56,319 bases of DNA, from the IMG/VR virus record IMGVR_UViG_3300020478_000009, positions 1 to 56,319 of that record. The stretch is one strand, 5' to 3'. Below are positions 5,120-31,510 of the stretch, piece by piece; position 1 is the stretch's first letter; the number at the start of each line of letters is the position of its first letter. Origin of the DNA: a virus (Duplodnaviria > Caudoviricetes). Under the pieces are notes generated by a model that was not told the DNA's origin, searched no databases, and saw only the letters and a program-made list of their open reading frames with translations. Both the position numbers and the translations under genes were made by a program.

Positions 5120-6673
5120 TTAACGAATGTCCCAAGGATTAGATTGAGTTAAACCAGTAGCTCCAATGATCGGGACTTTTCCACGTGGTGTCTCGTATAA
5201 AGCTAGAAGAATAGCTTCAGCCCTATCCGGGGACGGCACTCCACGTTTACGCATAGCTTCTTTTTTCTCAATCGTAATTCGACCAGAAGAATCTGAGCCA
5301 TAACGAGGCACAGAAAGTTGAGCGGCAGTTTTCCTATCAATCTCTAGTCTTACTTCCTGTAGGCCATTGGAATCTGGTTGTAAAAGTCTTCGAGTGTTCC
5401 ACCACATTTCTGCTCGCTGATTAGCAAATTGCTGAGGCGACCCAGAGCGTTCAGCAACATTAACTCGAATGATCTCAGCACTATGTCGGCGTTCTGTTTT
5501 CCATGTTTCCAAGATAGAAGCTACACCCCATCCAACTCCGACTGAATCAATTTTTACTCTTATGGGTTTGCGCCAAGGCCCGCGATCAGCAAATTTTTCT
5601 GCTTCTTCGATTTGTCTGAGTATTTGACCTGCGACATCTACAGCATTGATATTTGCTATACCACCTTGTGTATAAACCAAACGTACTGAGAAACCTTCGG
5701 CTCTAGCGATTGCAACTTCATCACCACCTCCTGCGGCGACATCAACACCTAATCTAATTTCGTCACTATAAGATGGGGCCTCATTTTCCATACTTCGTTC
5801 AACCCAGTCAATAGGAATAACTCGGTTACCTGTGTCTCTTGGAAATTCGGCGTGAACTCTGGCTTTGACATAAGCAGAGTCTTCACCAAATTCTCTGATT
5901 ACATCATCAACCCATTCTTGATTGATTAACTGTTGAGCTATTTCAGGTGGGCATTCTTCACCAGTAAAGTTAGGCGTGACTGAAGCTGGAATTTTTACAA
6001 CGTTATAGTTTCCGGCTTCGACTGCTCGTTCAAACCATGTATCGGAATCATCACTGGGAGGATTTCCAATAGCTAGTAAACGTGTGTGTCCACCTGTCAT
6101 TAGAGACTCAAATCCTTTTCCCAGTGTTGGACTAATACCTCCGGCTTCGTCAACAATAATTAAAAGATGAGGAACGTGGATTCCCTGCACACTTGCTTCA
6201 TCATGGTCAGAAGGAGAGAAACCAAAAGCTATTAAATCACGACCTTGTTTCCATTCGGTTGTTGTCATTTCTCCTAGAAGAGAACCTGCAGCGTGAACTT
6301 TGCGAATGTGAGGCCAAAGAATTGTACGCACTTGTCTAAAAGTTGGCGCTGTAGTTATCACTAGAGCAGATCCCGGTGGATGAACCGCTCCCCACCATGC
6401 AGCGGCTCTTGCCGCTATATGGGATTTACCGGGAGCGTGACACGCTGGGACTGCTGTTCTTTTATTATCTACTAGAGAGCGAAGTATTTCTCTTTGCTTT
6501 GACCAGAGAAATTCCCCTAAAGCTATTTCTACAAACCCTTCAGGGTAATCCTCGAATACGGCCCATTTTGTTCCACGTTCAGCTTCGAGTGCTTCCCATG
6601 CAAGTTTGCCTTCAGCATTAAGGATTTTTAAGCGTTCCTGTGGTGGTAGGTCAAAAAGTAAATCTAGAGACAT
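5120..6673 (-). CDS. terL: Terminase large subunit
   Basis: Walker A ACHAPGKS, Walker B IIVDEA, nuclease LGVDVA and SPDRAEA. Confidence 0.92.
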   Translation of the reverse strand: MSLDLLFDLPPQERLKILNAEGKLAWEALEAERGTKWAVFEDYPEGFVEIALGEFLWSKQREILRSLVDNKRTAVPACHAPGKSHIAARAAAWWGAVHPPGSALVITTAPTFRQVRTILWPHIRKVHAAGSLLGEMTTTEWKQGRDLIAFGFSPSDHDEASVQGIHVPHLLIIVDEAGGISPTLGKGFESLMTGGHTRLLAIGNPPSDDSDTWFERAVEAGNYNVVKIPASVTPNFTGEECPPEIAQQLINQEWVDDVIREFGEDSAYVKARVHAEFPRDTGNRVIPIDWVERSMENEAPSYSDEIRLGVDVAAGGGDEVAIARAEGFSVRLVYTQGGIANINAVDVAGQILRQIEEAEKFADRGPWRKPIRVKIDSVGVGWGVASILETWKTERRHSAEIIRVNVAERSGSPQQFANQRAEMWWNTRRLLQPDSNGLQEVRLEIDRKTAAQLSVPRYGSDSSGRITIEKKEAMRKRGVPSPDRAEAILLALYETPRGKVPIIGATGLTQSNPWDIR

Positions 6674-10335: not shown

Positions 10336-10988
10336 CAACAAAAGAAAACGAAGAGTATCCACTTTCAATCGAGGTGCTTTTGCATCGAGTGATGGCTGAT
10401 ATTGGAGTAGTAGAAAAAACCGGTTACAACAAATCCCAAAATTTTTATCATCGAACTATCGATGACACGATGAACGCTGCCCATAGGGCTTTAATAGCTC
10501 ATGGAGTTATTGTTTTACCAAAAGTTTTAAATAAAACCAGTGAGCGTGTAGCAACAAAAGGTGGAGGAACTGCTCAAAGAGTAGAGTTAACTGTTGGTTA
10601 CTCATTTGTTGGCCCTACTGGCGATTGCCTGACCGCTACTGTTGTTTCGGAAAGTATTGACTATGGAGATAAAGCAACTAGCAAAGCTATGAGTATGGCT
10701 CTTAAAGTTGCACTGCTTCAATCCTTGATGATTCCTACTGACGAGCTTGATCCTGATTCTGAGACTTACGAATTAGACGATCCCAGTATTAGTGAAGAAG
10801 AATTGAAACAAATCAATAAGTGGTTTTCAAGTATTGAGGATACAGAAAAACGTAAACACGCTAAACAACAATTCATAGACAAGTTCAGTTGTCGCCCTAT
10901 AGAATTGAAAGCTAATCGCATGTCTGATTTTTATGACTGGGCAGGTGCGTATATGGCTGATATAAGCGTGGAGGAAATTGGTGACTGA
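10332..10988 (+). CDS. erf: ERF-family single-strand annealing protein
   Basis: KTGYNKSQNF, GDKATSKAMSMALKVALLQSLMIPT..DPD. Confidence 0.88.
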   Translation: MTTKENEEYPLSIEVLLHRVMADIGVVEKTGYNKSQNFYHRTIDDTMNAAHRALIAHGVIVLPKVLNKTSERVATKGGGTAQRVELTVGYSFVGPTGDCLTATVVSESIDYGDKATSKAMSMALKVALLQSLMIPTDELDPDSETYELDDPSISEEELKQINKWFSSIEDTEKRKHAKQQFIDKFSCRPIELKANRMSDFYDWAGAYMADISVEEIGD

Positions 10989-11739
10989 AGAAAGACTTTG
11001 GAGTGATACTGGTTATTTTACAATAATCCCGGAATGGGTTTTAGATGCAAAGATAAGTGATGGTGCTGTTCGATTATATGGAATCTTAGGTCGTTACAGT
11101 GATGCTGAGGATAAATGTTTTCCTTCGCGTGGAACTCTGGCAACACGAATGCAAACTACAACAAAGAGTGTTGATCGCCGTATCGCTGAGTTAGTTGCAA
11201 TCGGGGCTTTAACTGTTGAGCATCGTTTAGCTGATAGTCCTTCCGGGAACAAATTTCATCGTTCCAACATTTATCATTTAAAACGAATAAACCCGCAAGG
11301 GGTAGGGACACAGTTGTCCCTAGGTAGTGATACTGCTGTCTCTAGGGTGGGGACACCGGTGTCTCAAGGTAGGGACACCACCGTCTCGCATAACGAGAGC
11401 CAAGAACGTGAGCCAATAGAATCAGATTTACTCTCAGAAAAAGAAGACGCATATATTCTTTGTAAAGTTCTTGCTTCTGCGATTTCAGCAGATGGAACTA
11501 TTGAACCTAAGATTACAAAAAGATGGATAATAGAAATGGATAGACTGTTAAGAATAGACCAACAACCAGTTGATGTTGTCCATGAAATGATTCAATGGTC
11601 AGCGGCAGATGATTTTTGGTGTACAAACATATTGTCTCCTCAGAAGTTGAGGAAACATTTTCCACGTTTGATTAAACAGAAACAAAGAGAAAAAGGGAGT
11701 TCACGCACCAGTCGGTTGTTATCTGTATTAGATGAGTAA
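10978..11739 (+). CDS. Replication initiator (HTH_36 N-terminus, lambda O-like organisation)
   Basis: FTIIPEWV, CFPSRGTLA, internal iterons, C-terminal DDFW..NILSPQKLRK. Confidence 0.8.
   Translation: MVTEERLWSDTGYFTIIPEWVLDAKISDGAVRLYGILGRYSDAEDKCFPSRGTLATRMQTTTKSVDRRIAELVAIGALTVEHRLADSPSGNKFHRSNIYHLKRINPQGVGTQLSLGSDTAVSRVGTPVSQGRDTTVSHNESQEREPIESDLLSEKEDAYILCKVLASAISADGTIEPKITKRWIIEMDRLLRIDQQPVDVVHEMIQWSAADDFWCTNILSPQKLRKHFPRLIKQKQREKGSSRTSRLLSVLDE
11301..11389 (+). repeat. Four ~22-bp iterons (GGTRGKGAYAC..GTCYC), putative replication origin
   Basis: Copies start at 11301, 11323, 11346 and 11368 inside the initiator gene. Confidence 0.75.
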
Positions 11740-11748
11740 AGGAGAGAA

Positions 11749-12171
11749 ATGAATAAAGGAGAAATTAAAGAAGTCCTTGGGATGTTACTTGGGGCTTTTC
11801 CTAGAAATGGTTTAGACGATGATGGTATCAGAATGTGGTCTGAGGCCTTACAAGATTTTAAAGTTGATGAAGCTAAAGCAACTGCTAGCCGGTTTGTGCA
11901 GGATGAAGAGTTCATGCCATCGATAGCTAAGTTTCGAGCTACTCATCGTAATTTAATAAGTGCTGCAAAAAGAAAAGATTTAGGTAAATGCACTAGAACA
12001 GATTGCTGGTCAGGGTGGGTAGATGCAAATTACTTGGAAAACAAAGTTGATCCTGACACTGAGGAAATAACCCAACATGAGCATCAGGCAGTAAGACCAT
12101 GTTCTGGATGTCGCCCAGAGTTGTATCAAAGGTGGTTAGATGGAACTATTCACCAGTCTTTAACACAGTAA
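11749..12171 (+). CDS. Helicase loader/inhibitor-like protein with C-terminal Zn finger
   Basis: AFP..W..LQD..FMPSIAKF pattern; directly follows the initiator. Confidence 0.6.
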   Translation: MNKGEIKEVLGMLLGAFPRNGLDDDGIRMWSEALQDFKVDEAKATASRFVQDEEFMPSIAKFRATHRNLISAAKRKDLGKCTRTDCWSGWVDANYLENKVDPDTEEITQHEHQAVRPCSGCRPELYQRWLDGTIHQSLTQ

Positions 12172-12172
12172 A

Positions 12173-12814
12173 ATGACAGCAAAATTATTTTCAGCCTTAA
12201 CAGCTTTTATGGCAATGTTTAATACTTGTACTGGACAAATTGCCGAAACGCCGGGAGTCGCTCACATAAATGAGCCTGTAGTGACCCACACAGCGATCAC
12301 AGACTCTTCTTCAGTAGAACGCACTCCTATCCCTCTTTATCACCAGCAGGCTTTCAGAACAGCTATAGAACGCCCTCAGGAGCCAATAGATTTAAACGGC
12401 TACGGTAGATGGTTAAAAGCACAGGGGAAACTGGAAGAATGTCCTATAAATAAGCCCTGTGAAATTGATCCTGAGCTTTATATAGAGCAATTACCAACTC
12501 TGGAAGAACTGGTTAACTGGTTTTTCCCTAAATGGTCTGATCGTCAACTGTTTCTAAGGATAGCTTTTTGCGAGTCGAGTGCTAAACCTACAGATAAGTA
12601 TTCAACAGCGGTTAATAAATCTAGTGGAGCTTCAGGCTGGTTTCAACACTTACCAAAATTTTGGTTAGAACGAACCAAAAAAAGCGAATATTTTGATGGT
12701 TTTCATATTCTTGATCCGATTGCGAACGTAGGTATGGCGGCTTGGATTTATTTTAATTTGCCGGGCGGTAGTAGTCATTGGTATCCCAGTCGTTCATGTT
12801 GGGAGAAGCAATGA
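12173..12814 (+). CDS. Exported lytic transglycosylase-like (lysozyme fold) protein
   Basis: Signal-like N-terminus; RIAFCESS..AVN..GASGWFQ..ANV..AA. Confidence 0.7.
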   Translation: MTAKLFSALTAFMAMFNTCTGQIAETPGVAHINEPVVTHTAITDSSSVERTPIPLYHQQAFRTAIERPQEPIDLNGYGRWLKAQGKLEECPINKPCEIDPELYIEQLPTLEELVNWFFPKWSDRQLFLRIAFCESSAKPTDKYSTAVNKSSGASGWFQHLPKFWLERTKKSEYFDGFHILDPIANVGMAAWIYFNLPGGSSHWYPSRSCWEKQ

Positions 12815-13791
12815 GTCCTGCATGGGGTTGTGTACCACCTGTGGATAAACCATATAAACATGGCTCTTTTTGCACAGGCTACGGCGGTTTAGATATGGCT
12901 ATTGAAGAGTTTTTTGATGCTGAAACTGTTTGGTATTCTGAAATAGAAGCATCTTGTAATACGTTGTTAGAGCAACATGGATATAGAAATAATTTAGGTG
13001 ATTTAACAAAAATAGACTGGAACGAGGTAGAACAAGTAGATATTATGTCTGCTGGTTTCCCTTGCCAGCCGTTTAGTATCGCAGGCTCAAGGAAGGGTTT
13101 TAATGATGAAAGAGCAATCTTTGAATGGATCGCGGACGGTATTAGCATTTTACGACCAAGAATTGTCGTGTTGGAGAATGTCGGAGGCCTCCTTACTCTT
13201 GGAGGAACCAGCGTTGTTGGATTACTTACCCGCATCGGGTATGACTGTAGATGGAGCGTTGTTTCCGCTTCCGAAGCCGGAGCGCCACACCAACGAAGAA
13301 GATGGTTCTGCATTGCAGAGGCGAAAAACTTTATTGCCTACACCGATGGCACACGACCACAAAGACACAGGATTAGCTCCATCACAGGAGAACAGGGGGA
13401 CACGGACACTTCCAGTGGTACTACATTTGCTACCAACACCGCTAGCACTCGGCTCGAACGACAGCGGTTTAGCTCCAACACAACTTCGAGGAAACTTTCA
13501 ATCAACTTCGGCAGTGCTACGGAAAATAGCGAACAACCAGACTTCGTGTGGGGAAAATACGAAGGAGCCATTAGAAGATGGGAACACATTATTGGGAGAT
13601 TGGCTCCATACCCAGTAGCTGAGAGAGGAGTTAATCCAGCGTTTACAGAATGGATGATGGGTTTACCTGAAAATCATGTGTGTAATCGAGGTTTATCAAG
13701 AGCAAAAGAATTAAGGATGCTTGGCAACGGTGTGGTTCCTCAGCAGGCGCTTTTGGCTTTAGAGATGTTGTATGACTGGAGATGCGACTAA
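12811..13791 (+). CDS. C5-cytosine DNA methyltransferase, copy 1
   Basis: FCTGYGG, GFPCQPFS, ENV, QRRRWF, EWMMGLP, LGNGVVP. Confidence 0.93.
   Translation: MSPAWGCVPPVDKPYKHGSFCTGYGGLDMAIEEFFDAETVWYSEIEASCNTLLEQHGYRNNLGDLTKIDWNEVEQVDIMSAGFPCQPFSIAGSRKGFNDERAIFEWIADGISILRPRIVVLENVGGLLTLGGTSVVGLLTRIGYDCRWSVVSASEAGAPHQRRRWFCIAEAKNFIAYTDGTRPQRHRISSITGEQGDTDTSSGTTFATNTASTRLERQRFSSNTTSRKLSINFGSATENSEQPDFVWGKYEGAIRRWEHIIGRLAPYPVAERGVNPAFTEWMMGLPENHVCNRGLSRAKELRMLGNGVVPQQALLALEMLYDWRCD
13103..13618 (+). CDS. Nested +1-frame ORF in MTase 1 (putative beta subunit)
   Basis: 171-aa open frame; AAGGAAGG upstream; two LLPTP repeats; paralogous to 14056-14484. Confidence 0.6.
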   Translation: MMKEQSLNGSRTVLAFYDQELSCWRMSEASLLLEEPALLDYLPASGMTVDGALFPLPKPERHTNEEDGSALQRRKTLLPTPMAHDHKDTGLAPSQENRGTRTLPVVLHLLPTPLALGSNDSGLAPTQLRGNFQSTSAVLRKIANNQTSCGENTKEPLEDGNTLLGDWLHTQ

Positions 13792-14630
13792 TGAATGAAT
13801 CACTAACTCACGGCTCTTTTTGTACAGGCTATGGAGGGCTTGACATGGCTGTAGAGGAATTTTTTGGAGCTTCAACTGTCTGGTATTCTGAAATAGACTC
13901 AGCGTGTAATAAGCTTTTAGCTAAATATGGTTATGAAACAAATTTAGGTGATTTAACAAAAATAGACTGGGATAAGGTAGAGCCTGTCGATATCATGTCG
14001 GCTGGTTTTCCTTGCCAACCTTTTAGTTTTGCAGGAGAAAGAAAAGGAGAAGAAGATGAAAGAGCAATTTTCCAGTGGATCGCTGACGGCATTAGCGTTC
14101 TTCGACCAAGAATCGTCGTGTTGGAAAATGTCGCAGGAATCCTTAATCTCGGAGGACCATCAGTCCTTGGAGCTATTGCCAGCTTGGGGTATGACGCAAG
14201 ATGGGGCATTGTACGGGCTTCCGATGTCGGAGCACCACATCAGCGACAAAGATGGTTTTGCGTTGCTAACGACACCACAAGCGTCAGAGAACATCCGGGG
14301 CAGACCGAAAAGATTCGAGGAGAGAGTACACAAGGCGAAAAAAGAGTACCGGTACGATTTAGCAGACCAGATAGTCTACATAGCGATTTTGAATGGGGGC
14401 GATATGGGCCTGCTATTAAACGATGGGAAGGCGTTTTGGGAAGGTCGGCTCCAGAACCCTGCACAAACGTCAATGACAGATTGATAAATAGTTCTTTTTT
14501 GGAATGGATGATGGGTTTACCTGAAAATCATGTATGCAATCAGGGGTTAAGCACATCTCAAGAGTTGCACGCCTTAGGTAATGGCGTAGTTCCCCAGCAG
14601 GCTTATCATGCTTTGGAGTTGTTGGTATGA
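13791..14630 (+). CDS. C5-cytosine DNA methyltransferase, copy 2
   Basis: Same motifs as copy 1; TAATG coupling at 13789-13793. Confidence 0.93.
   Translation: MNESLTHGSFCTGYGGLDMAVEEFFGASTVWYSEIDSACNKLLAKYGYETNLGDLTKIDWDKVEPVDIMSAGFPCQPFSFAGERKGEEDERAIFQWIADGISVLRPRIVVLENVAGILNLGGPSVLGAIASLGYDARWGIVRASDVGAPHQRQRWFCVANDTTSVREHPGQTEKIRGESTQGEKRVPVRFSRPDSLHSDFEWGRYGPAIKRWEGVLGRSAPEPCTNVNDRLINSSFLEWMMGLPENHVCNQGLSTSQELHALGNGVVPQQAYHALELLV
14056..14484 (+). CDS. Nested +1-frame ORF in MTase 2 (putative beta subunit)
   Basis: SD AAAGGAG at 14043-14049, 6 nt before ATG 14056; SCWKMSQ..LPAWGMTQDGALY..LLTTPQASE. Confidence 0.62.
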   Translation: MKEQFSSGSLTALAFFDQESSCWKMSQESLISEDHQSLELLPAWGMTQDGALYGLPMSEHHISDKDGFALLTTPQASENIRGRPKRFEERVHKAKKEYRYDLADQIVYIAILNGGDMGLLLNDGKAFWEGRLQNPAQTSMTD

Positions 14631-14878
14631 CACATCATCAAATGAAATGTGCTACTGGATGTATAAACCAGTCACCTTTATGTCGTTGGTGTATTCCTAC
14701 TGGTTGGCGGTTCCCGGTTAGAAAATGCAATCACGACTGGGAAGATGCTATTGCAGTAACAAAAGAAACAGAGATTTTAAAAGAATTAAAAAGTAAAAAA
14801 CATAAAAGCAAAGAATCTTTACGTTATGAGTTTTGGCTTCGATGCGTAAAGTGTGAAAGTTTCAAGGCAATTATATGA
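14627..14878 (+). CDS. Cys-rich hypothetical protein
   Basis: Several CxxC/CxH pairs; coupled to both neighbours. Confidence 0.55.
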   Translation: MTHHQMKCATGCINQSPLCRWCIPTGWRFPVRKCNHDWEDAIAVTKETEILKELKSKKHKSKESLRYEFWLRCVKCESFKAII

Positions 14879-15762
14879 AGTATTACATTCAGCTATGGTC
14901 AATGGTGATTATAGGGCTTTTAATCTGTGGGATTATGTGGCTTGCTTGTGAACCACATACAGCTAAAGCTCATCACGACAGAATATACACACCCTGTGAC
15001 ACAACTACTGGGCATGTTCACATGAGCTACGAAGAAATGGTTGCTCGTATCTCAATAATGGAACAAGACGGAACTATTCCACCGGGCATGATCTCACGTT
15101 ATGTAGAAGCTAGAGATGGCGGTAAAGGTAATGACGATCCTCGTTTTGTTTGGGCTAGAAATCTGGAAGAAGGACAAATACTTTCTTTAGGAAACTGGGC
15201 AAGCGGGCATCATCCTGAGCTTGAACAACTTGTGCTTAATTCAGGGCTTGTAGCTGAATGGCAGTTGGATGCTAATAAAACAGTAAGACGATTTAATGAT
15301 CCTTACTGGATGCAAGCAAATCCGCTGTCACCAGCATTTACGGTCTGGGAGTCTCTTTGCATGGCTAATCTTGGTTATTCGATTCCAATGTTTGAAGTAG
15401 ACGATAATGGAGAATGGGTGTCTAATGTGCCTACCGTCACTACAACCACACCACCACCAACCACAACTATTATTGTTGAAGAAATTACTTTTGATGGCGG
15501 TACAAGTATTAACATTACTGACCCTGATGTAGTCCCTGTAATTCTTGCGCCAGTGTATGAAGAACCTTCTTTTAGTTGGGTTGAAAGATGGTTTCAAGCT
15601 GAGTGGGATGATTTTCCTTTTGAAGACACGATTAAGCTTTTAGAGGAAAGATACCCACCTAACACTCCTAAGAAGTATCATTTTAGATTATCCACTGCTG
15701 TAGAGTTTTTAAGAGAAGGTGGCAAACTTAAAGGATTAGATAATGTTTGGAATGGTGAATGA
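14875..15762 (+). CDS. Exported/membrane-anchored hypothetical protein with Thr/Pro linker
   Basis: Hydrophobic N-terminus; PTVTTTTPPPTTT. Confidence 0.65.
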   Translation: MKYYIQLWSMVIIGLLICGIMWLACEPHTAKAHHDRIYTPCDTTTGHVHMSYEEMVARISIMEQDGTIPPGMISRYVEARDGGKGNDDPRFVWARNLEEGQILSLGNWASGHHPELEQLVLNSGLVAEWQLDANKTVRRFNDPYWMQANPLSPAFTVWESLCMANLGYSIPMFEVDDNGEWVSNVPTVTTTTPPPTTTIIVEEITFDGGTSINITDPDVVPVILAPVYEEPSFSWVERWFQAEWDDFPFEDTIKLLEERYPPNTPKKYHFRLSTAVEFLREGGKLKGLDNVWNGE

Positions 15763-15916
15763 TTTACTCAGGTGAAAATCTTGACGATTTCAATTTTTCT
15801 ACTCAATGGTTGAATAAGAAACCAATTAAAGTTAAAGAAGCTGTTGTTTGTCATTGTGGAGATGTTGAAAGTTCTCATTCGATAAAACAAAAACGTATTT
15901 GTAGGAATGGGGCTTA

Positions 15917-16207
15917 GTGTTAGCACAAGTAGATGTTGAGGTTTGGAGTAAAGACGAAGAGGGTAACCCAGTAGTGGCTCATCAGAGTCTTTTAGAAAAC
16001 ATTGAACGTGTCATTACTTATTCGACTATGGAGTATGACGGTATCCCGGAAGAAAACACTGGTTTCTTTTATGAAGTGATTGTTACTAAAGGAATGATTG
16101 AAGTTAATCAATTTGATGAAAGTGGTGAGTTTTTAAAAGGTGGCTTTATGCCATTAAGTAATTACCCAGTTTCATTAAGCAATACTTTTATCGAGAAAGA
16201 GAAATGA
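15917..16207 (+). CDS. Hypothetical protein
   Basis: ORF coupled to the downstream HNH gene. Confidence 0.5.
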   Translation: MLAQVDVEVWSKDEEGNPVVAHQSLLENIERVITYSTMEYDGIPEENTGFFYEVIVTKGMIEVNQFDESGEFLKGGFMPLSNYPVSLSNTFIEKEK

Positions 16208-16593
16208 AGCGCACACCGTTAAAAAGAAAAACACCTCTTAAAAGAAAAACACCATTAAGACCTGTTAGTAAGAAGCGTCAACGTATTCAGGCTCAACGCC
16301 GGGAACTTGTGAGAAACGAGTTGGAGTATAGACAGTGGTGTGAAGCAGGGCCTCATATTACTAGATTTCTGGTTTCACAATTAACTGAAAGTATGAAGCG
16401 TTCAGTTGAAGGTAAAACTGTTTGTCAGGGGCGTTCTGTTGATATTCATGAGCCTTTAACTAGAGCTAGAGGTGGTTCTATCTTAGATACTGAGAACACT
16501 ATGGCTGTTTGTCGGGCGTGTCACGATTGGATTCATACACATCCTGAGAACGCAAAGCATTTAGGTTTGTTAAAATCAAATTATGACTCTTAA
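16204..16593 (+). CDS. HNH endonuclease-like protein
   Basis: KRTPLKRK repeats; DIHEPLTRARGG..N..VCRACHDWIH. Confidence 0.8.
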   Translation: MKRTPLKRKTPLKRKTPLRPVSKKRQRIQAQRRELVRNELEYRQWCEAGPHITRFLVSQLTESMKRSVEGKTVCQGRSVDIHEPLTRARGGSILDTENTMAVCRACHDWIHTHPENAKHLGLLKSNYDS

Positions 16594-22106: not shown

Positions 22107-23438
22107 GTGACTGACCTTATAGATACTTTTGCTGAGAACGAAATTAAAAAAGCGACCTCCACTGATTTTATGGAGATCGGTTCTTCTGGTTTACACGTTT
22201 ATGACGGACAAGTAAGAGAAGAGTTTCTAACTCAGCTTCGTGGAAGAAACGCTTACAAGACATATCGGGAGATGCGTGACAACGATCCTGTTATTGGAGC
22301 GGTGCTTCAAGCTATAACTATGTTGATGCGCTCAGTTGAATGGCAGGTTGAACCTGCTGATCCTGAGGACCAGAAAGCGGCTGATGTCGCAGAGTTCTGT
22401 GGTAGCTGTCTAACGGACATGAGTCAAACATGGGAAGATATGCTCGCTCAGATAATGACTTACCTTACTTACGGCTGGTCATATTTTGAGATTATCTACA
22501 AATACCGTAAAGGCTGGAATGAGACAGGGGATCGTTCCCGGTATGACGATGGGATGATCGGTTGGCGAAAGCTTGCACCACGCGCTCAGGACACTTTGGA
22601 ACGCTGGGAGTTAGATGAGAACGGCGGAGTTCAAGGCATGTACCAGATGAACCCTGTGTCCGGTAAAGGACAGGTTCTTATTCCTATTGAGAAAGCTTTG
22701 CTGTTTAGAACATCTAGTGCTTTGAACAACCCTGAAGGCAAATCGGTTTTAAGAAACGCTTACACTTCTTACTATTTTAAAAAACGAATACAAGAGATCG
22801 AAGCTATCGGTATTGAACGTGACCTTGCAGGGCTACCTATCGCATACGTGCCACCTCAACTACTTTCAGATAACGCTACAAGCGAAGAGACAGCGGCTTT
22901 AGGTGAAATAAAAAAGATTATTCGTAACATTAGGCGTGACGAGCAGGAAGGCGTGGTCTTTCCGCTGGCTTACGATCCTGAGACAAATAACCTTGCTTAC
23001 GATTTAAAGCTTCTCTCGACTGGTGGTGATCGTCAGTTCGACACAGATGCGATCATAGGTAGATACGATCAGCGCATGGCGATGACGATGCTCGCTGATT
23101 TCATTCTTTTAGGACACGAAAAAGTAGGGACTCAAGCCTTGTCTGTTTCTAAGGTCGCTTTGTTCAGCCAAAGCTTGAACGCTTACCTAGATGGAATAGC
23201 GGCAGTATTTCAGAATCACGCATTCCCTAGATTGTTGAAGATCAACAACATTGATGCGAATTTGACTCCCAGTCTTACTCACGCACCAGTAAGAAACGTG
23301 GACTTGAAAGAACTCGGCGAGTATGTCAGCAAACTCACCGGTTCAGGAGCCACGCTATTTCCTGATGATCAGCTTGAAGCTTACTTGAGAGAGGTTGGCG
23401 GTTTACCAGTAAGCAGTGATGCTGAATCGGTTGACTAA
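22107..23438 (+). CDS. Portal protein
   Basis: YREMRDNDPVIGA, YGWSYFEI, NPEGKSVLR, IGIERDLAGLP; first gene of head operon. Confidence 0.9.
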   Translation: MTDLIDTFAENEIKKATSTDFMEIGSSGLHVYDGQVREEFLTQLRGRNAYKTYREMRDNDPVIGAVLQAITMLMRSVEWQVEPADPEDQKAADVAEFCGSCLTDMSQTWEDMLAQIMTYLTYGWSYFEIIYKYRKGWNETGDRSRYDDGMIGWRKLAPRAQDTLERWELDENGGVQGMYQMNPVSGKGQVLIPIEKALLFRTSSALNNPEGKSVLRNAYTSYYFKKRIQEIEAIGIERDLAGLPIAYVPPQLLSDNATSEETAALGEIKKIIRNIRRDEQEGVVFPLAYDPETNNLAYDLKLLSTGGDRQFDTDAIIGRYDQRMAMTMLADFILLGHEKVGTQALSVSKVALFSQSLNAYLDGIAAVFQNHAFPRLLKINNIDANLTPSLTHAPVRNVDLKELGEYVSKLTGSGATLFPDDQLEAYLREVGGLPVSSDAESVD

Positions 23439-26400
23439 TGCCGCTGACTATAGGGCGTTCTCGCCGGTCAGGTTTCGCTAAAACTGTTGTTAAAATCCCG
23501 CGCAAGCAGGTAGCTGGACAACCGGGGTTAGAGCCTGTAGACGCTCCTTTAACTCCATTAGAGAAAAAAGTAGCTCGTATTTTTGTTGAGGCTTTAACTT
23601 TCACACCCCGGCAAATATCCAGACTATTAGAAGAAGATGAAACTGTAGGAGCGTTAACACCTTTTTTAGAGCATCTTGAACCTGCTCGCAAAGAACTATC
23701 TGACGCTTTAATGGAACAACTCGATGAGTCCGGGGCTTTCTTCTGGAATGAACTTGTTGATCAGCTTAAACGTAAACCTGATCCCTCATCAGTTAATTTC
23801 ATTGCTAAAAACCAAATCAGAAAAGAGATTGATCCTGAAGACGTAACAGTAGTGATGCCTACAGGGGCAGAGTTCACCAGTAGTTTCTCTAAACGCACAC
23901 CACGCGGTAAACGCTGGGCTGATAACGAATCAGCGAGACTAATAACTAACATCGCTGAAGAAACAAGAGAGAACCTGCAAGACGTTATTGCTTCTGCTAC
24001 CGGGCGTGGGGGCAGGCAACGAATGATGACTTTACTGGGAAACGTTTTAGAAAACGCTCCTGCGGGTATTGACTCTGGGAATGTTCTCACAAAGTTTCAA
24101 TCTGAAGTCTCACCGGCTGTCGCAGGGCTTACATTCAAACAGCATAATGCTGTAATCAATACAGCTAATAAAGCTTTTGATGATGCTTTAGCTAAAGGCT
24201 TGCCGTTTAATAAAGCTGTTGAAGCGGCTGAGAAAGAAGCTTTAGCTCACGGTAAACGTGCGCGTGAATATCGAGCAAGAATGATTTCACGTACTGAGAT
24301 GATGGAAGCTTCAAACAGGGGAAAGCTCGAAGCGGCGAAACAAGCCGCTGAAGCTGGAATGTTTAACCCTCACAGGGCAGGTAGACAATGGGTTACTTCT
24401 ACTTTCGATGTTTGCGTTACTTGCGAACCTTTGCATGGGAAAGTTGTTGCGTTTGAAAGTGGAACCTTCCCAGCGAAATACAAAGTTAGCGGGAACTGGG
24501 TAGAGGAACCCCACGATTTACCTCCGGCTCATCCAAATTGTCGATGCACTTGGACACTGGTTTACGACACCGTAGTTCCTCCTACTGCTACAGAGACAGG
24601 TGTTTTAACTCCTCCAAAAGATGTTCCATTAGAGTTGCTTAACCGAGCGTGGGCTGAAGCAGGCAAGCTCGCTCGTTCTGTAGCTTCAGTACAAGACGAA
24701 GTTACTGGAGTGATGGTAAGTGTCGCTGACGACATCGGCGCAGATATGTATGGGTTGCAACACGCAACAAAAACAGAAGCTTCTCTAGCTCGTAAAATCA
24801 CAACAGATTTCACAGAAGAAGTAGCTAAAGATCCGACACTTACTGTAGAAGCTGTAGCTGAGGACATTGGAGATGCGCTTAGGTTTACGATGATCGCTGA
24901 TGCTGAAAATTACACGGATGATGTGATGGCGGCGCTTCGAGATTTAGAAGCCCGTGGTTACACGTACAAGAAGGCTCCTAAGAATTTTTGGCGAGTTGAT
25001 AATCTGAAAAATCCGTACAACGGAATTAACGTGAATATGCGTACACCTACTGGGCAAATAGTGGAAATTCAGTTTCATACCCCTGAAGGTATCGCTATGA
25101 AAAACAGGATTCATCCTCTTTATGAGAGACAGCGAGCTATTGGTGTTACTCAAGAATTGAAAGATGAGATCGCTGAAGAAATGGCTGAGATGGTTTCAGT
25201 GTTGGATTATCCGGATGATGTAACCGATTTGCGGTTCTTCCCTGATGAAGAAATCAAGTATCGTTTAGAAACTGAAGATGACATTGTTGCACGTTTTGGT
25301 GGTAAGTGGCCTGAAGGATCAATGGATGCTTACACGGATGCTGACGGCAACTGGTGGGAGATGCGTGAAACCCTGCATGAGAACATAATCGAAGAAGGAT
25401 TGTCGAAAGCTACACCTGTTGAAGAACCGATAGTGCATTTCATGGGAGGAGGCCCTGCATCCGGTAAAGGCACAGCGATTAGGCAAGGACTGATAGATGT
25501 CCCTGACAACATCGTGGTTGTTGACGCTGACGAGATTAAAGATGCTTTACCTGAATATAAAGCTTTGATTGATGACAGGTCATCGAGAGCGGCGGCGTAT
25601 GTGCATGAGGAAAGTTCGTATTTGTCGAAAGAAATGTTCCAAGAGTCGATTGATAGTGGAAGAAACACTCAGCTTGACGGTACAGGAGATTCTTCTATAG
25701 AGAAGCTTCGCTCTAAAGTCGCATCAGCTAGAGAAGCTTCATCAGCGCAAGGCGGAACTAGAGTGATTGCTGATTACATAACTATTGACACGGAAGAAGC
25801 TGTTAAACGAGCAAGAAGTCGAGCAATTCGCACAGGTCGTTCAGTCCCAGAGTCGGTTGTTCGTGAAACACATGCAAGTATCAGTAGGATATTCCCTGAT
25901 ATTCTTGATGAGAATTTGTTTGATGACATTAAGCTTTGGGATACAGCGTTTGATCCACCGAAGCTGATTTTACGTAAAGTTGATGGTGTTCTTGAAATTT
26001 ATGACGAAGCGGCTTATGAACGTTTCTTGTTGAAGAACCCTGATTATCCCGGTGCTGGTATCAAACCGGGAATTGAGCCGATTATTGACAGTAAGAGCCG
26101 TGTTTATTTAACGATTGATGAACAGTATGATCCGCTTCGACAGTCGCAAGTTCACGAACCTTTTTATGAAGAGAAACTGGCTCAAGGCGTTCCTACCGAT
26201 GAACCTGATGTAGTGATCTTGGGAGGAGGCCCTGCGTCTGGTAAAGGTCATTTATTAGATAGAGACATTATTGAAAAACCTGAAGGTCATATTGTTGTTA
26301 ATCCTGATGACGCTAAAGCAGTCATACCTGAATATAAACAAATTATCGAAAATGGTGACAGTTGGGCTTCTACTTATGTTCACGAAGAATCTTCTGACAT

Positions 26401-28159
26401 GGCTCAAGAGCTAATGGCAAGAGCGCTAGTAGATGAAAGCATCCCAGTCATTTTAGATGGAACTGGAGATTCAACTTACGAAAAGTTAACGATCAAAGTT
26501 AATACAGCACGACAAAGAGCTAAAGGTGGAAGAGTTCGAGGGGAGTATGTCACATCAGATATTGATGTCGCTATAGAGAGAGCGGCAATACGGGCTAAAA
26601 GAGAAGGTCGTGATGTTCCTGAAGGAGTAATCAGAGAGACTCATGTGAATGTTTCTAAAGTTTTCCCTAAAGCGGCTGATGACGATTTGTTTGACGAGTT
26701 GCGTTTGTATGACACTAATAGTGGTGAGCCTGTTTTGATTTACGAGAAGATTGATGGTGTTGAAAACATTATTGACCCGGAAGCTTACGAACGGTTCTTA
26801 ATGAAGAATCCTGATTATACTCCACCTGCGTCTGAGACAATAGAATCTTTGCGGTCTATTACTGAAACATTGTCAAATATGGAAGATGACTTGGGCATTT
26901 CTCTTCTAGTAGATGATGCCGGTAATTATGCTGGCACACCTGCATATTATGCTGATGATGTGCCTGTTCGTGTAGAAACAGGTACGAGCTATGCAGATGA
27001 GGTAGAAGTAGTGGGAAGTTTCAAAGAGCAGAAAGAAACTCTTGATGTCGCTTTGGAGATGGTAGATAGTGCGTTTGCTCCACCTACAGGTGGCTTGTCG
27101 CTTTACTGGGATAGGAGACCAAAGAAAGTTGAGTTTCGTTACACTCCAACTAAACCTAAAGGAAAAGACGGTTTAGGTGGTTCGTATAACAAAAAGAAAT
27201 ACCCAGACAGGCCTAAACGTGTAGCTAAACCTGCACGTATAAAAAAGATGATTCCGGAGGTTACCTCGAATTTAGACGAATGGGCAAAACAACGATCATA
27301 TGCACTTGGTGAACCTATAGCGGCATTAGATGTGGCTACTGGTCTTCCCGCAACTGTAAATGGCAAAATTGCTTACGTTCACGACAATATGGCAGAACAA
27401 GCTAAACAATACAGACACGTTGCGACACGATTAGAAGAACTCAATAAGCGGGCTATGCAGGACTCGGCTTTGTTTGAACTTTATGGTTATGAGAGTGCTG
27501 AAGAAATGCTGGAAGAGTATTACAGCTACTGGTACGCACAAGCTGAACGTTTAGAAGAAATTGATGTATATGATCGTGGATACATCGGGGAGTCTTTCCG
27601 TTTCATCAGGCTCCGACCGGGAACTAAAGGCAGTCGAACAAACGCTCTTGTGCATGAGATAGGACACGATTTTGATTACATGCAAGAAATAGAACTTGTC
27701 TTAATTAAAAACAAAGAAAAGATGCAACTCTCGCCAAATGATAGCAACATAGAAATTATTTTTGATTTGTATAAGAGAGGCAAAATTAATAAAGCGTCAG
27801 TTGGAGAGCAGGGCTTGGCTTACATTGAGTTCATGGAAAACGTTGTTGAGAGCAAGGCTTACAAAAAGTTACTTTCACAAGAAGTTCAGGACACGATGTT
27901 GAACGCAGGAATGTCGCAAGCGGAAATATCTGCTTACCTACAATACGCTACCAGTCCAAAAGAAGTTTGGGCTAGAGCATTTAACCAGTGGACTACAACA
28001 CGACATGGGCGTAATGCACCTGACGCAGTAGAAGATATGCTAGTCGAATCTTTGCCATCGTTTAATAACATTGGTTTTCAGTGGGAACAAGAAGATTTTG
28101 ATATAATGGTAGCACCATATTTAGAGAAAATTTTTAAAGCAAACGGGTGGGTTGAGTAA
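23438..28159 (+). CDS. MuF head-morphogenesis protein fused to RelA/SpoT(Apk)-type synthetase, two zeta-toxin kinase domains and a C-terminal HEXXH domain
   Basis: MuF: RARMISRTE, C..C, PPAHPNCRC. Synthetase: KTEASLARK, DALRFT, KNFW, YNGIN, EIQFHT. Zeta x2: GGGPASGKG, D..K...PEY, HEES, DGT. C-terminus: HEIGH, EVWARAF. Confidence 0.88.
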   Translation: MPLTIGRSRRSGFAKTVVKIPRKQVAGQPGLEPVDAPLTPLEKKVARIFVEALTFTPRQISRLLEEDETVGALTPFLEHLEPARKELSDALMEQLDESGAFFWNELVDQLKRKPDPSSVNFIAKNQIRKEIDPEDVTVVMPTGAEFTSSFSKRTPRGKRWADNESARLITNIAEETRENLQDVIASATGRGGRQRMMTLLGNVLENAPAGIDSGNVLTKFQSEVSPAVAGLTFKQHNAVINTANKAFDDALAKGLPFNKAVEAAEKEALAHGKRAREYRARMISRTEMMEASNRGKLEAAKQAAEAGMFNPHRAGRQWVTSTFDVCVTCEPLHGKVVAFESGTFPAKYKVSGNWVEEPHDLPPAHPNCRCTWTLVYDTVVPPTATETGVLTPPKDVPLELLNRAWAEAGKLARSVASVQDEVTGVMVSVADDIGADMYGLQHATKTEASLARKITTDFTEEVAKDPTLTVEAVAEDIGDALRFTMIADAENYTDDVMAALRDLEARGYTYKKAPKNFWRVDNLKNPYNGINVNMRTPTGQIVEIQFHTPEGIAMKNRIHPLYERQRAIGVTQELKDEIAEEMAEMVSVLDYPDDVTDLRFFPDEEIKYRLETEDDIVARFGGKWPEGSMDAYTDADGNWWEMRETLHENIIEEGLSKATPVEEPIVHFMGGGPASGKGTAIRQGLIDVPDNIVVVDADEIKDALPEYKALIDDRSSRAAAYVHEESSYLSKEMFQESIDSGRNTQLDGTGDSSIEKLRSKVASAREASSAQGGTRVIADYITIDTEEAVKRARSRAIRTGRSVPESVVRETHASISRIFPDILDENLFDDIKLWDTAFDPPKLILRKVDGVLEIYDEAAYERFLLKNPDYPGAGIKPGIEPIIDSKSRVYLTIDEQYDPLRQSQVHEPFYEEKLAQGVPTDEPDVVILGGGPASGKGHLLDRDIIEKPEGHIVVNPDDAKAVIPEYKQIIENGDSWASTYVHEESSDMAQELMARALVDESIPVILDGTGDSTYEKLTIKVNTARQRAKGGRVRGEYVTSDIDVAIERAAIRAKREGRDVPEGVIRETHVNVSKVFPKAADDDLFDELRLYDTNSGEPVLIYEKIDGVENIIDPEAYERFLMKNPDYTPPASETIESLRSITETLSNMEDDLGISLLVDDAGNYAGTPAYYADDVPVRVETGTSYADEVEVVGSFKEQKETLDVALEMVDSAFAPPTGGLSLYWDRRPKKVEFRYTPTKPKGKDGLGGSYNKKKYPDRPKRVAKPARIKKMIPEVTSNLDEWAKQRSYALGEPIAALDVATGLPATVNGKIAYVHDNMAEQAKQYRHVATRLEELNKRAMQDSALFELYGYESAEEMLEEYYSYWYAQAERLEEIDVYDRGYIGESFRFIRLRPGTKGSRTNALVHEIGHDFDYMQEIELVLIKNKEKMQLSPNDSNIEIIFDLYKRGKINKASVGEQGLAYIEFMENVVESKAYKKLLSQEVQDTMLNAGMSQAEISAYLQYATSPKEVWARAFNQWTTTRHGRNAPDAVEDMLVESLPSFNNIGFQWEQEDFDIMVAPYLEKIFKANGWVE

Positions 28160-30241: not shown

Positions 30242-30277
30242 TAACTCTGGCTCTTCTCAGTTGATATTATTGTGTTT

Positions 30278-31510
30278 ATGCCTTATTCAATTACCAGTAA
30301 CCACAAAGATTGCTCAACGTTTGCAGTTGTTAAAGACGATGATGGTAAGTTGATGGGGTGTCATGAAACACGTGAAGCGGCTAAAAGACAGATAGCCGCA
30401 TTGTACGCATCTGAAGGAGCGAGCATGGAAAAAGCAACCAAGACTGATGATGGTAACGAATATCCTGCTAAAGCTTATGCGTATGTTCCTGATGCTGAGA
30501 AACCTTCAACATGGAAGTTACGTCTTTGGCAAACCCCTGAGATGGGAGTAACACGTAGGCAAGTTGGTTTAGCGATAGCCGCTTTAGGTAAAGGATATAG
30601 AGGAAACAGAGTGCGAATACCTTCTGGTGATCTTCCGGCTGTTAAAAATCGAGTGTTGAATGCGTGGTTGGATGTTCACCCTGAGATGAATCGTAGTGAT
30701 GCTCCCAGAGTTCTTTTAGCTAGTCGCATGACTGTAGCTACTCCTGCTGATAAGCGTCTTTACGACAAAGGGCATAACGACTGGCAGAGCGATTCAATGA
30801 CTTTGTTGCTTATGGCTTATCGTGAAATGCTGAATCATCCTAATTGTGAAGAGTTGCTTGAACCTCTTATGGAACTCATTCACATGAAGCAAGACATCAT
30901 GTTAGAAGCAATGGAAATTGAACTGGATGAAGAAGAAGACTATGAATATGCTCTTGAGCAACCCACGTTGGAAAGAATTAAAAGAGCGTCATTAAGACAG
31001 TTGACCAAATGGATTAACGGCATGGATAAGATGGGCGATTCTCGCGATGTCGCTGTGTTAAGAGCTTACGTTGAAGCAGAGATTAAGAGTCGAATAAACA
31101 AAGCTGGTTTCGTTGTAGAAAAAGCTGAAGCTAAACGTTACACACTAGGTCCGGTGTACGTGCCAAACGTTGAAGATGCTCATGGAGAGTTCACAGATGA
31201 TGACACTTTACAGGAAGCACTTTGGGGATGGATGCAAAAAGATGATCGTTCCATTTACTTGCAACATTCTGAAACTAAAGCAGGAGAGTTTGTTGAACTA
31301 TTAACATGGCCTTTCGCAATGAAAGCAGAGATGAGTTTGCCTGATCAAGAAGCTCAAGAGTTTGAGTTTCCCGCAAACACACCTTTCATGGGTGTTATAT
31401 GGGAACCTTGGGCATGGGAGCTTGTACAGCAAGGAGAGCTTCGTGGTTACTCAATCGGAGGAACGGCTCGCAGGGTTGAAGCGGATCTAGGTGAACTGGT
31501 TTCTGCGTGA
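30278..31510 (+). CDS. Capsid maturation protease (XkdF-like) with N-terminal extension
   Basis: YTLGPVYVPN..DAHGE, LQH, GYSIGG; TATTAT lies 7 nt before ATG 30278. Confidence 0.8.
   Translation: MPYSITSNHKDCSTFAVVKDDDGKLMGCHETREAAKRQIAALYASEGASMEKATKTDDGNEYPAKAYAYVPDAEKPSTWKLRLWQTPEMGVTRRQVGLAIAALGKGYRGNRVRIPSGDLPAVKNRVLNAWLDVHPEMNRSDAPRVLLASRMTVATPADKRLYDKGHNDWQSDSMTLLLMAYREMLNHPNCEELLEPLMELIHMKQDIMLEAMEIELDEEEDYEYALEQPTLERIKRASLRQLTKWINGMDKMGDSRDVAVLRAYVEAEIKSRINKAGFVVEKAEAKRYTLGPVYVPNVEDAHGEFTDDDTLQEALWGWMQKDDRSIYLQHSETKAGEFVELLTWPFAMKAEMSLPDQEAQEFEFPANTPFMGVIWEPWAWELVQQGELRGYSIGGTARRVEADLGELVSA

Follow-up and report, generated by a model that had tools for sequence, protein, structure and literature searches.

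A pair of tandem C5 DNA methyltransferase genes, MT1 and MT2, lies within the replication module of the virus record IMGVR_UViG_3300020478_000009, and the question that this locus raises is whether each of these genes encodes one protein or two. The record is 56,319 bp long and complete, with direct terminal repeats, and the whole of it is referred to here as the window. Inside each gene a long open reading frame (ORF) runs in the +1 frame, that is, through codon positions 2 and 3 of the main frame and position 1 of the following codon. We refer to the main-frame products as alpha and to the nested products as beta. We found that the nested frame is under selection and that both frames are kept.

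The two nested ORFs open at equivalent places. Both nested ATGs are formed by GAT-GAA within main-frame GAT GAA AGA (D-E-R) codons and follow a Shine-Dalgarno-like site, an arrangement that the first-pass annotation of this DNA had read directly from the letters and had right in every detail (Table 1). Counted from TTG 14029, nested ORF 2 would have 151 amino acids (aa). The two products, which had been proposed to align with each other, do so with 54% identity across their first 82 residues. In each of them an N-terminal module of about 75 residues overprints main-frame motifs V-VIII and is followed by motifs of the LLPTP type, present twice in beta 1 and in a single copy, as LLTTP, in beta 2; these motifs had been placed in the alternative frame, and that is where we located them. 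The C-terminal part of beta 2 differs from that of beta 1.

We examined whether the nested frame would stay open if only the main-frame protein mattered. For this, both genes were recoded under two nulls, with codons either permuted within each amino-acid class or drawn from the codon usage of the window. No stop is observed in the +1 frame over the nested ranges, against null means of 6.2-8.0, and in each of the four tests 0 of 5,000 recodings were free of stops. Over the same ranges the +2 frame contains 11 stops (nested ORF 1) and 12 stops (nested ORF 2).

The same question was put to homologues. With only the N-terminal half of alpha as the query (alignment A1), we assembled 160 loci (80 viral and 80 genome contigs), to which 24 earlier loci were added. 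Of these 184 loci, 181 had an alpha match and 173 were left after removal of eight in which motif IV or VIII could not be recognised (L117, L120, L128, L130, L134, L142, L145 and L167). All but four of the 173 were chosen by alpha alone or by the whole main-frame methylase protein; the four others (L021-L024) were found with beta as the query and so were not sampled without bias. Between the position equivalent to the nested ATG and motif VIII, the +1 frame is stop-free in 96 of the 173 loci and the +2 frame in 11. At a G+C content (GC) below 0.45, the +1 frame is stop-free in 13 of 15 viral loci (+2, 0 of 15), and in only 2 of 40 genome loci, which are mostly classical chromosomal methylases and average 5.3 stops where stops occur. 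Because classical genes are so rarely open, the open +1 frame is not a by-product of the methylase motifs and marks a subfamily. The 13 closest viral relatives (L025-L037; 51-60% identity, GC 0.41-0.47) all share the layout of the window. Frequent +1 stops among homologues, which the first-pass annotation had named as the sign to look for against a nested gene, are absent from these 13: eleven were stop-free at first, and L030 and L037 proved to be so once counted from the ATG.

Furthermore, the nested frame encodes a particular protein. Since the conserved main frame forces some +1 similarity among homologues, profile scores have to be compared with a recoding null. We trained a +1 profile over motifs V-VIII on 65 distant loci out of 87 open ones, leaving out the window together with its 13 close relatives in the open set (L004, L039 and 11 of L025-L037, with L030 and L037 outside that set), as well as nine loci with a doubtful module (L005, L006, L015, L051, L060, L112, L155, L176 and L182). 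Nested ORF 1 scores 87.5 bits, against a null of 32.0 (standard deviation 8.2, maximum 60.2), and nested ORF 2 scores 95.6 bits, against 40.6 (standard deviation 7.9, maximum 66.2); for neither did any of 1,000 recodings reach the observed score. For all 15 close relatives tested, the observed score was higher than that of any of 300 recodings; the 10 classical low-GC methylases taken as controls all scored within the null. Because the excess over recodings is found in the window and its relatives and is absent from the controls, the synonymous sites of alpha are under constraint to spell the nested protein.

The start signals follow the same pattern. In low-GC relatives the nested ATG arises from GAT-GAR, or from AAT-GAx one codon upstream. 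Among 19 relatives with GC >0.6 that carry the motif [RK]xG..D[EDA]R, GAT serves as the Asp codon in 14 of 19 (background 0.185, binomial 2.5e-7). The Shine-Dalgarno-like site of these relatives is likewise built from rare codons, with GGA for the Gly of R-K-G in 13 of 19 (background 0.177, binomial 1.6e-6) and AAA for the Lys in 8 of 12 (background 0.32, binomial 0.015), figures that are all indicative only because the loci counted are related and their independence is thereby overstated.

Natural variation bears on both frames. When the variable region is compared among 16 close sequences, conservation is higher in +1 than in frame 0 for 83 of 120 pairs. A variant of MT1 found in other marine metagenome contigs (X3 record 4, 13083-13677) carries 18 substitutions and a 6-nt in-frame deletion, and none of the 18 substitutions falls within the 237 doubly coded bases 13083-13319 (P about 1e-4). 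Within the nested range the variant alters 14 codons in each frame and creates no stop. In the main frame its 11 replacements are radical (BLOSUM62 sum -18, with 3 of 11 scoring >= 0), whereas the 11 replacements in the nested frame are conservative (BLOSUM62 sum +11, with 10 of 11 scoring >= 0). A divergent allele of the MT2 variable region (14277-14618, 48 differences in 342 bases) has two pairs of compensating 1-nt indels (14358/14364 and 14481/14484), by which both frames are locally shifted and then restored.

Next we examined which protein the nested frame encodes. Pfam holds no family for the nested products. They match phrog_1008 ('DNA methyltransferase') at profile positions 67-170; of this profile, the main frames of the window match no more than the C-terminal part with motifs IX-X. 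Initial searches gave no homologue of nested product 1 at E <= 0.01 among 107 candidates, and tblastn against phages was also empty; this was a matter of sensitivity, as a later profile search found the family. A 72-sequence profile of the module (A2) scores 99.8 bits against beta 1 and 103.8 bits against beta 2, with no internal stops, and among 1.84 billion cluster representatives it matches 24,566 at E <= 1e-3; the stricter cut-offs of E <= 1e-10 and E <= 1e-30 leave 14,401 and 16 of them, respectively. Most of the 150 best matches are proteins of 107-445 residues in which the module starts at residue 1. Some of these proteins consist of the module and LLPTP repeats only, as in the window (P0005, P0008, P0025, P0077, P0112), and others end in motif IX (P0011, P0050, P0091). 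The clusters of the family are unnamed or called 'hypothetical protein', the name given to both of those that have a source name. The nested products of the window are themselves absent from this collection, in which MT1 alpha is present. In P0140, motif I of alpha is in frame with the module, and in P0088 the module is in frame with an alpha-type segment preceding motif X, which suggests either frequent frame swaps by indels or assembly errors.

Several relatives connect the module with the methylase. The main frame of L004 ends shortly after motif VIII, and the +1 ORF from the same ATG carries the module, two LLPTP-type repeats, a W..F-E-P-A-I-K-R-W-E segment and motifs IX and X; in L016 and in the Arthrobacter phages Jinkies and Abidatro, the +1 ORF likewise extends past LLPTP to take in motifs IX and X. 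Wachhund, L006 and Actinomyces phage xhp1 still carry the +1 module, and their LLPTP repeats are read in the main frame, where they separate motif VIII from motif IX, in agreement with the earlier statement that such repeats occur in the variable region of phage methyltransferases. Because they are joined to motifs IX-X in the former group and the repeats are in frame in the latter, the module and the repeats belong to the methylase and sit in the place of its target-recognition domain. The module is thus the N-terminus of a very large protein family and is physically joined to motifs IX-X in relatives. In the record of Jinkies (L023, 313-1191), the catalytic ORF with motifs I-VIII is unannotated and the overlapping +1 ORF alone is labelled 'DNA methylase'.

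The main frame of both genes encodes a recognisable methylase. The MT1 and MT2 proteins are 56% identical and score 130.7 and 118.9 bits, respectively, against PF00145, for which the curated cut-off is 22; their motifs I, IV (PCQ), VI (ENV), VIII (QxRxR), IX and X (GNGV) share one frame, as expected of members of that family. The main frame had been suggested to retain motifs IX and X, and both are read in frame 0 of alpha, motif IX as FTEWMMGLPENHV / FLEWMMGLPENHV. An AlphaFold2 (AF2) model of MT1 alpha from a 30-sequence alignment has a mean predicted local distance difference test (pLDDT) score of 80.7 and a predicted template modelling (pTM) score of 0.79, and its fold resembles M.HhaI. 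Confidence is high for the core (residues 11-170) and for the C-terminus with motifs IX-X (241-320). Residues ~175-240 are modelled as coil lacking secondary structure, with pLDDT 40-57, and below 50 for residues 189-226. The main-frame stretch opposite the repeats, earlier described as filler, is accordingly predicted to be a disordered linker where the target-recognition domain should be.

Enzymes of two chains are known among C5 methylases, and in the account of PMC3404938 M.EcoHK31I and M.AquI are the two exceptions among characterised members, which are otherwise monomeric. M.EcoHK31I from E. coli (YGGCCR; Lee, Kam and Shaw 1995, as described in PMC2836561 and PMC3404938) is an alpha/beta C5-methyltransferase. 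Its beta polypeptide is described in PMC2836561 as encoded wholly within the alpha gene in another frame, with both chains needed for activity, which agrees with what the first-pass annotation had stated of it; that description gives alpha motifs I-VIII, motif X and the recognition domain, and beta motif IX. The window is like M.EcoHK31I in that the ORF of a second polypeptide, known here from sequence, lies inside the alpha gene in another frame. Because the main frame keeps motifs IX and X, the layout of the window is not the EcoHK31I partition: compared with the published description of that layout, alpha of the window holds both motifs, and its beta consists of the module and LLPTP repeats, with no motif IX recognised in either nested product when layouts were classed. 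M.AquI (CYCGRG) is described in PMC3404938 as a two-subunit C5-methyltransferase whose beta comprises the distal variable region and motifs IX-X. By that description, the proposed enzyme of the window is like M.AquI in being split within the variable region into two chains, and unlike it in that alpha runs through motif X, motifs IX-X stay on alpha and the overlap amounts to 142-171 codons.

The one-chain 'DNA methylases' of actinophages (e.g. Mycobacterium phage Wachhund gp069) are likewise close to the window. Their catalytic chain is 36-50% identical, and they share the W-G-K-Y..A-I-x-R-W-E segment, motifs IX-X and the +1 module over motifs V-VIII; they differ in having LLPTPxAxD repeats between motifs VIII and IX in the main frame, whereas the repeats of the window are in +1 on the nested chain. 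Many members of the phrog_1008/module family continue into motifs IX-X, which the nested products of the window do not contain. The hidden out-of-frame HNH endonuclease of the ShiLan methylase, a related mycobacteriophage enzyme, as far as it is described in PMC11855218, is a nested element different from that of the window. A literature search that did not extend to subscription journals and REBASE found no description of the wider nested family or of the layout beyond M.EcoHK31I. Judging from these comparisons, the window is best read as encoding a two-chain nested methylase that resembles M.EcoHK31I and M.AquI and is divided differently from either.

All of these partitions recur in our sample. 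In a rough classing of 175 genes by layout, 35 have the layout of the window (alpha with motifs I-X, nested chain without motif IX), 31 show the partition of M.EcoHK31I (alpha with motifs I-VIII and X, beta with motif IX), and six are AquI-like, with beta carrying motifs IX-X (L004, L055, L066, L096, L110, L111); the latter show, as in L004, the partition of M.AquI with a long overlap. Eight genes combine one chain and in-frame repeats with a nested module, 18 are unclear, and 77 have no +1 ORF over motifs V-VIII, a class that includes some long-insert genes whose beta starts later (for example, L016 and L021-L023). In seven loci (L089, L091, L094, L095, L097, L102 and L121) a +1 ORF of 285-493 aa, with MWILPKQL.. 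as its first residues, opens close to the alpha start and covers all of the catalytic gene, making nearly 1 kb doubly coded. Another locus, L176 (1499-1927), is a classical Streptococcus-type methylase (FEDTRGTLFFE type, GC 0.41) with a different 142-residue +1 ORF over motifs IV-VIII, ending ..CSLSDILEENVPEEFFLS.., which may represent a second, unrelated nested-ORF family.

We consider it likely, in line with what the first-pass annotation had proposed, that the two frames of each gene encode a two-chain methyltransferase, in which the nested beta docks on alpha and most likely provides target recognition. Each methylase gene would be read in two frames to give two proteins. Frame 0 would yield the catalytic chain, in which motifs I-VIII are separated from motifs IX and X by an unstructured linker of ~65 residues and then a short, conserved stretch. 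Frame +1, using its own Shine-Dalgarno site and the ATG inside the D-E-R codons, would yield a beta of 142-171 residues, composed of the conserved ~75-residue module over alpha motifs V-VIII and then one or two repeats of the LLPTP type, whose coding sequence takes the place that a target-recognition domain would have in a one-chain enzyme. We infer that beta is translated in this phage, that it binds alpha and that it has a role in sequence recognition. The two paralogues, with their differing beta tails, would methylate different sites and protect the phage DNA. A wider proposal, for and against which we find the balance about even, is that in a very large class of phage cytosine methylases the recognition half is obligatorily overprinted on motifs V-VIII, as a +1 module of ~75 residues that overlies the best-conserved portion of the methylase and has been kept in phages ranging from 37% to >70% GC, with gene clusters that number tens of thousands; alpha, despite its ten motifs, would be blind without the nested chain, and the specificities of paralogues would differ only through their nested chains.

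A number of observations weigh against the two-chain enzyme. Alpha keeps all ten motifs and an open frame, and might work alone. The recoding null takes the alpha sequence as given, although beta may have had a part in shaping it, and the start-codon counts come from related loci. A simple test of synonymous differences is weak among close relatives (0.42 vs 0.53, lower in 76 of 105 pairs), and between MT1 and MT2 the synonymous differences run the opposite way (0.35 vs 0.24). The AF2 model of nested chain 1, built from 79 sequences, is poor overall, with a mean pLDDT of 61.7 and a pTM of 0.32. Its residues 11-60 form two beta-hairpins and short helices (pLDDT 75-85) and the repeat part is extended, a pattern that would fit a chain folding on a partner or on DNA, which is an expectation and not evidence for such folding. 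Among solved structures the nested chain has no sequence relative (best E 0.022, a glycolipid transfer protein, taken as chance), and its model has no structural match (best Z 2.2), a result that is uninformative about the fold because the model is of low confidence outside residues 11-60.

The completeness of alpha also lends itself to a different account, in which the nested protein is made and selected but dispensable, with alpha methylating alone and beta modulating specificity, stability or timing, or serving an unrelated role. About 35 of the 175 genes share the layout of the window and others put motif IX on beta, so that the dependence of alpha on beta may vary with layout. We nevertheless think this account unlikely, as the module and the LLPTP repeats are covalently joined to motifs IX-X in relatives, the repeats stand in frame within the variable region of one-chain enzymes, and alpha has only a predicted disordered linker in the place of the recognition domain. 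The LLPTP repeats in +1 fall precisely where frame 0 passes from motif VIII to motif IX, in the order of parts found in one-chain relatives, and this position could instead reflect programmed ribosomal frameshifting that yields one chain, read in frame 0 up to motif VIII, in +1 for LLPTP and again in frame 0 for motifs IX-X. This is distinctly improbable: each gene would require two shifts, frame 0 is open and alpha is completed without any shift, the conserved ~75-residue module upstream of motif VIII would go unread and its conservation be left unexplained, and so would the conserved ATG and Shine-Dalgarno site and the thousands of predicted proteins starting at that ATG.

Indels do move frames in this family, as in the paired 1-nt indels of the MT2 allele and in P0088 and P0140, which join the frames differently, and the +1 ORFs might on that ground be chance or untranslated relics of an ancestor whose frames were moved in this way. 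Such an origin is hardly credible given that no recoding remains open, that profile scores are far above the recoding null in 17 of 17 genes tested, that beta replacements are conservative in the natural MT1 variant, and that from the ATG onward the frame is open in each of the 13 closest viral relatives.

If the nested chain of the two-chain enzyme is a real subunit, half of the enzyme is missing from a large share of phage 'DNA methylase' annotations; specificity predicted from the annotated chain alone would be wrong, cloned alpha chains may be inactive, and gene callers would systematically miss a conserved overlapping gene of 140-490 codons. Routine annotation records the proposed two-chain enzyme as a single gene. 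Obligatory overprinting, if true, would rank these genes, in length and in spread, with the foremost same-strand gene overlaps known from viruses of prokaryotes. A two-chain enzyme of this kind would also provide a naturally divided scaffold on which methylation could be targeted, and its ~230 shared coding bases would allow the double constraint on two proteins to be studied cleanly.

Table 1. Positions in the window of the two methylase genes, their nested ORFs and associated signals.
Feature	Position	Strand	Remarks
MT1 alpha chain	12811..13791	+	PF00145 E 1e-37; matches to phrog_363 and phrog_116; motifs I-VIII, linker, motifs IX-X, all in frame 0
Shine-Dalgarno-like AAGGAAGG	13089..13096	+	6 nt 5' of nested ATG 1; built from main-frame R-K-G codons
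Nested +1 ORF 1 (beta 1)	13103..13618	+	171 aa, inside MT1; phrog_1008 E 5.7e-9
Module of beta 1	~13103-13330	+	+1 frame
LLPTP repeats of beta 1	13331-13345, 13427-13441	+	+1 frame; followed by tail
MT1 main-frame linker	13333..13530	+	Residues ~175-240, opposite the LLPTP repeats
MT2 alpha chain	13782..14630	+	PF00145 E 4.1e-34; second C5 DNA methyltransferase
Shine-Dalgarno-like AAAGGAG	14043..14049	+	6 nt 5' of nested ATG 2
Nested +1 ORF 2 (beta 2)	14056..14484	+	142 aa from ATG, inside MT2; phrog_1008 E 1.1e-8
LLTTP motif of beta 2	14263-14277	+	+1 frame

The phage that carries these genes is siphovirus-like, with genes for terminase, portal, major head, tape measure, Erf, an O-like replication initiator and a helicase loader. 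Window DNA is detected in metagenome DNA runs from marine, sponge and seawater samples; no RNA run is among the sequencing runs listed as carrying the window, and a scan for promoters and terminators over 10500-16500 gave no signal exceeding shuffles. In other marine metagenome contigs, position 12786 or 12805 is fused directly to 14636, giving relatives without either methylase gene, and in further contigs 12898 is fused to 14004, or 13041 to 14001, so that a single hybrid methylase replaces the two. As these junctions skip or merge the genes, the methylase cassette (12786-14636) is an accessory, recombining module in the phage population.

Elsewhere in the window, the minus strand carries the genes for the terminase large subunit (5120-6673) and an exonuclease (1160-2227), whereas the rest of the genome has the other orientation. 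The annotation of a 412-residue ORF at 30272-31510 is ambiguous, with the same C-terminal stretch matching PHROGs named RNA ligase, DNA methyltransferase (phrog_1530) and head maturation protease. A 1573-residue ORF at 23438-28159 has head-morphogenesis and minor-head-protein matches together with weak polynucleotide-kinase-like matches, and appears to encode a large multi-domain virion protein.

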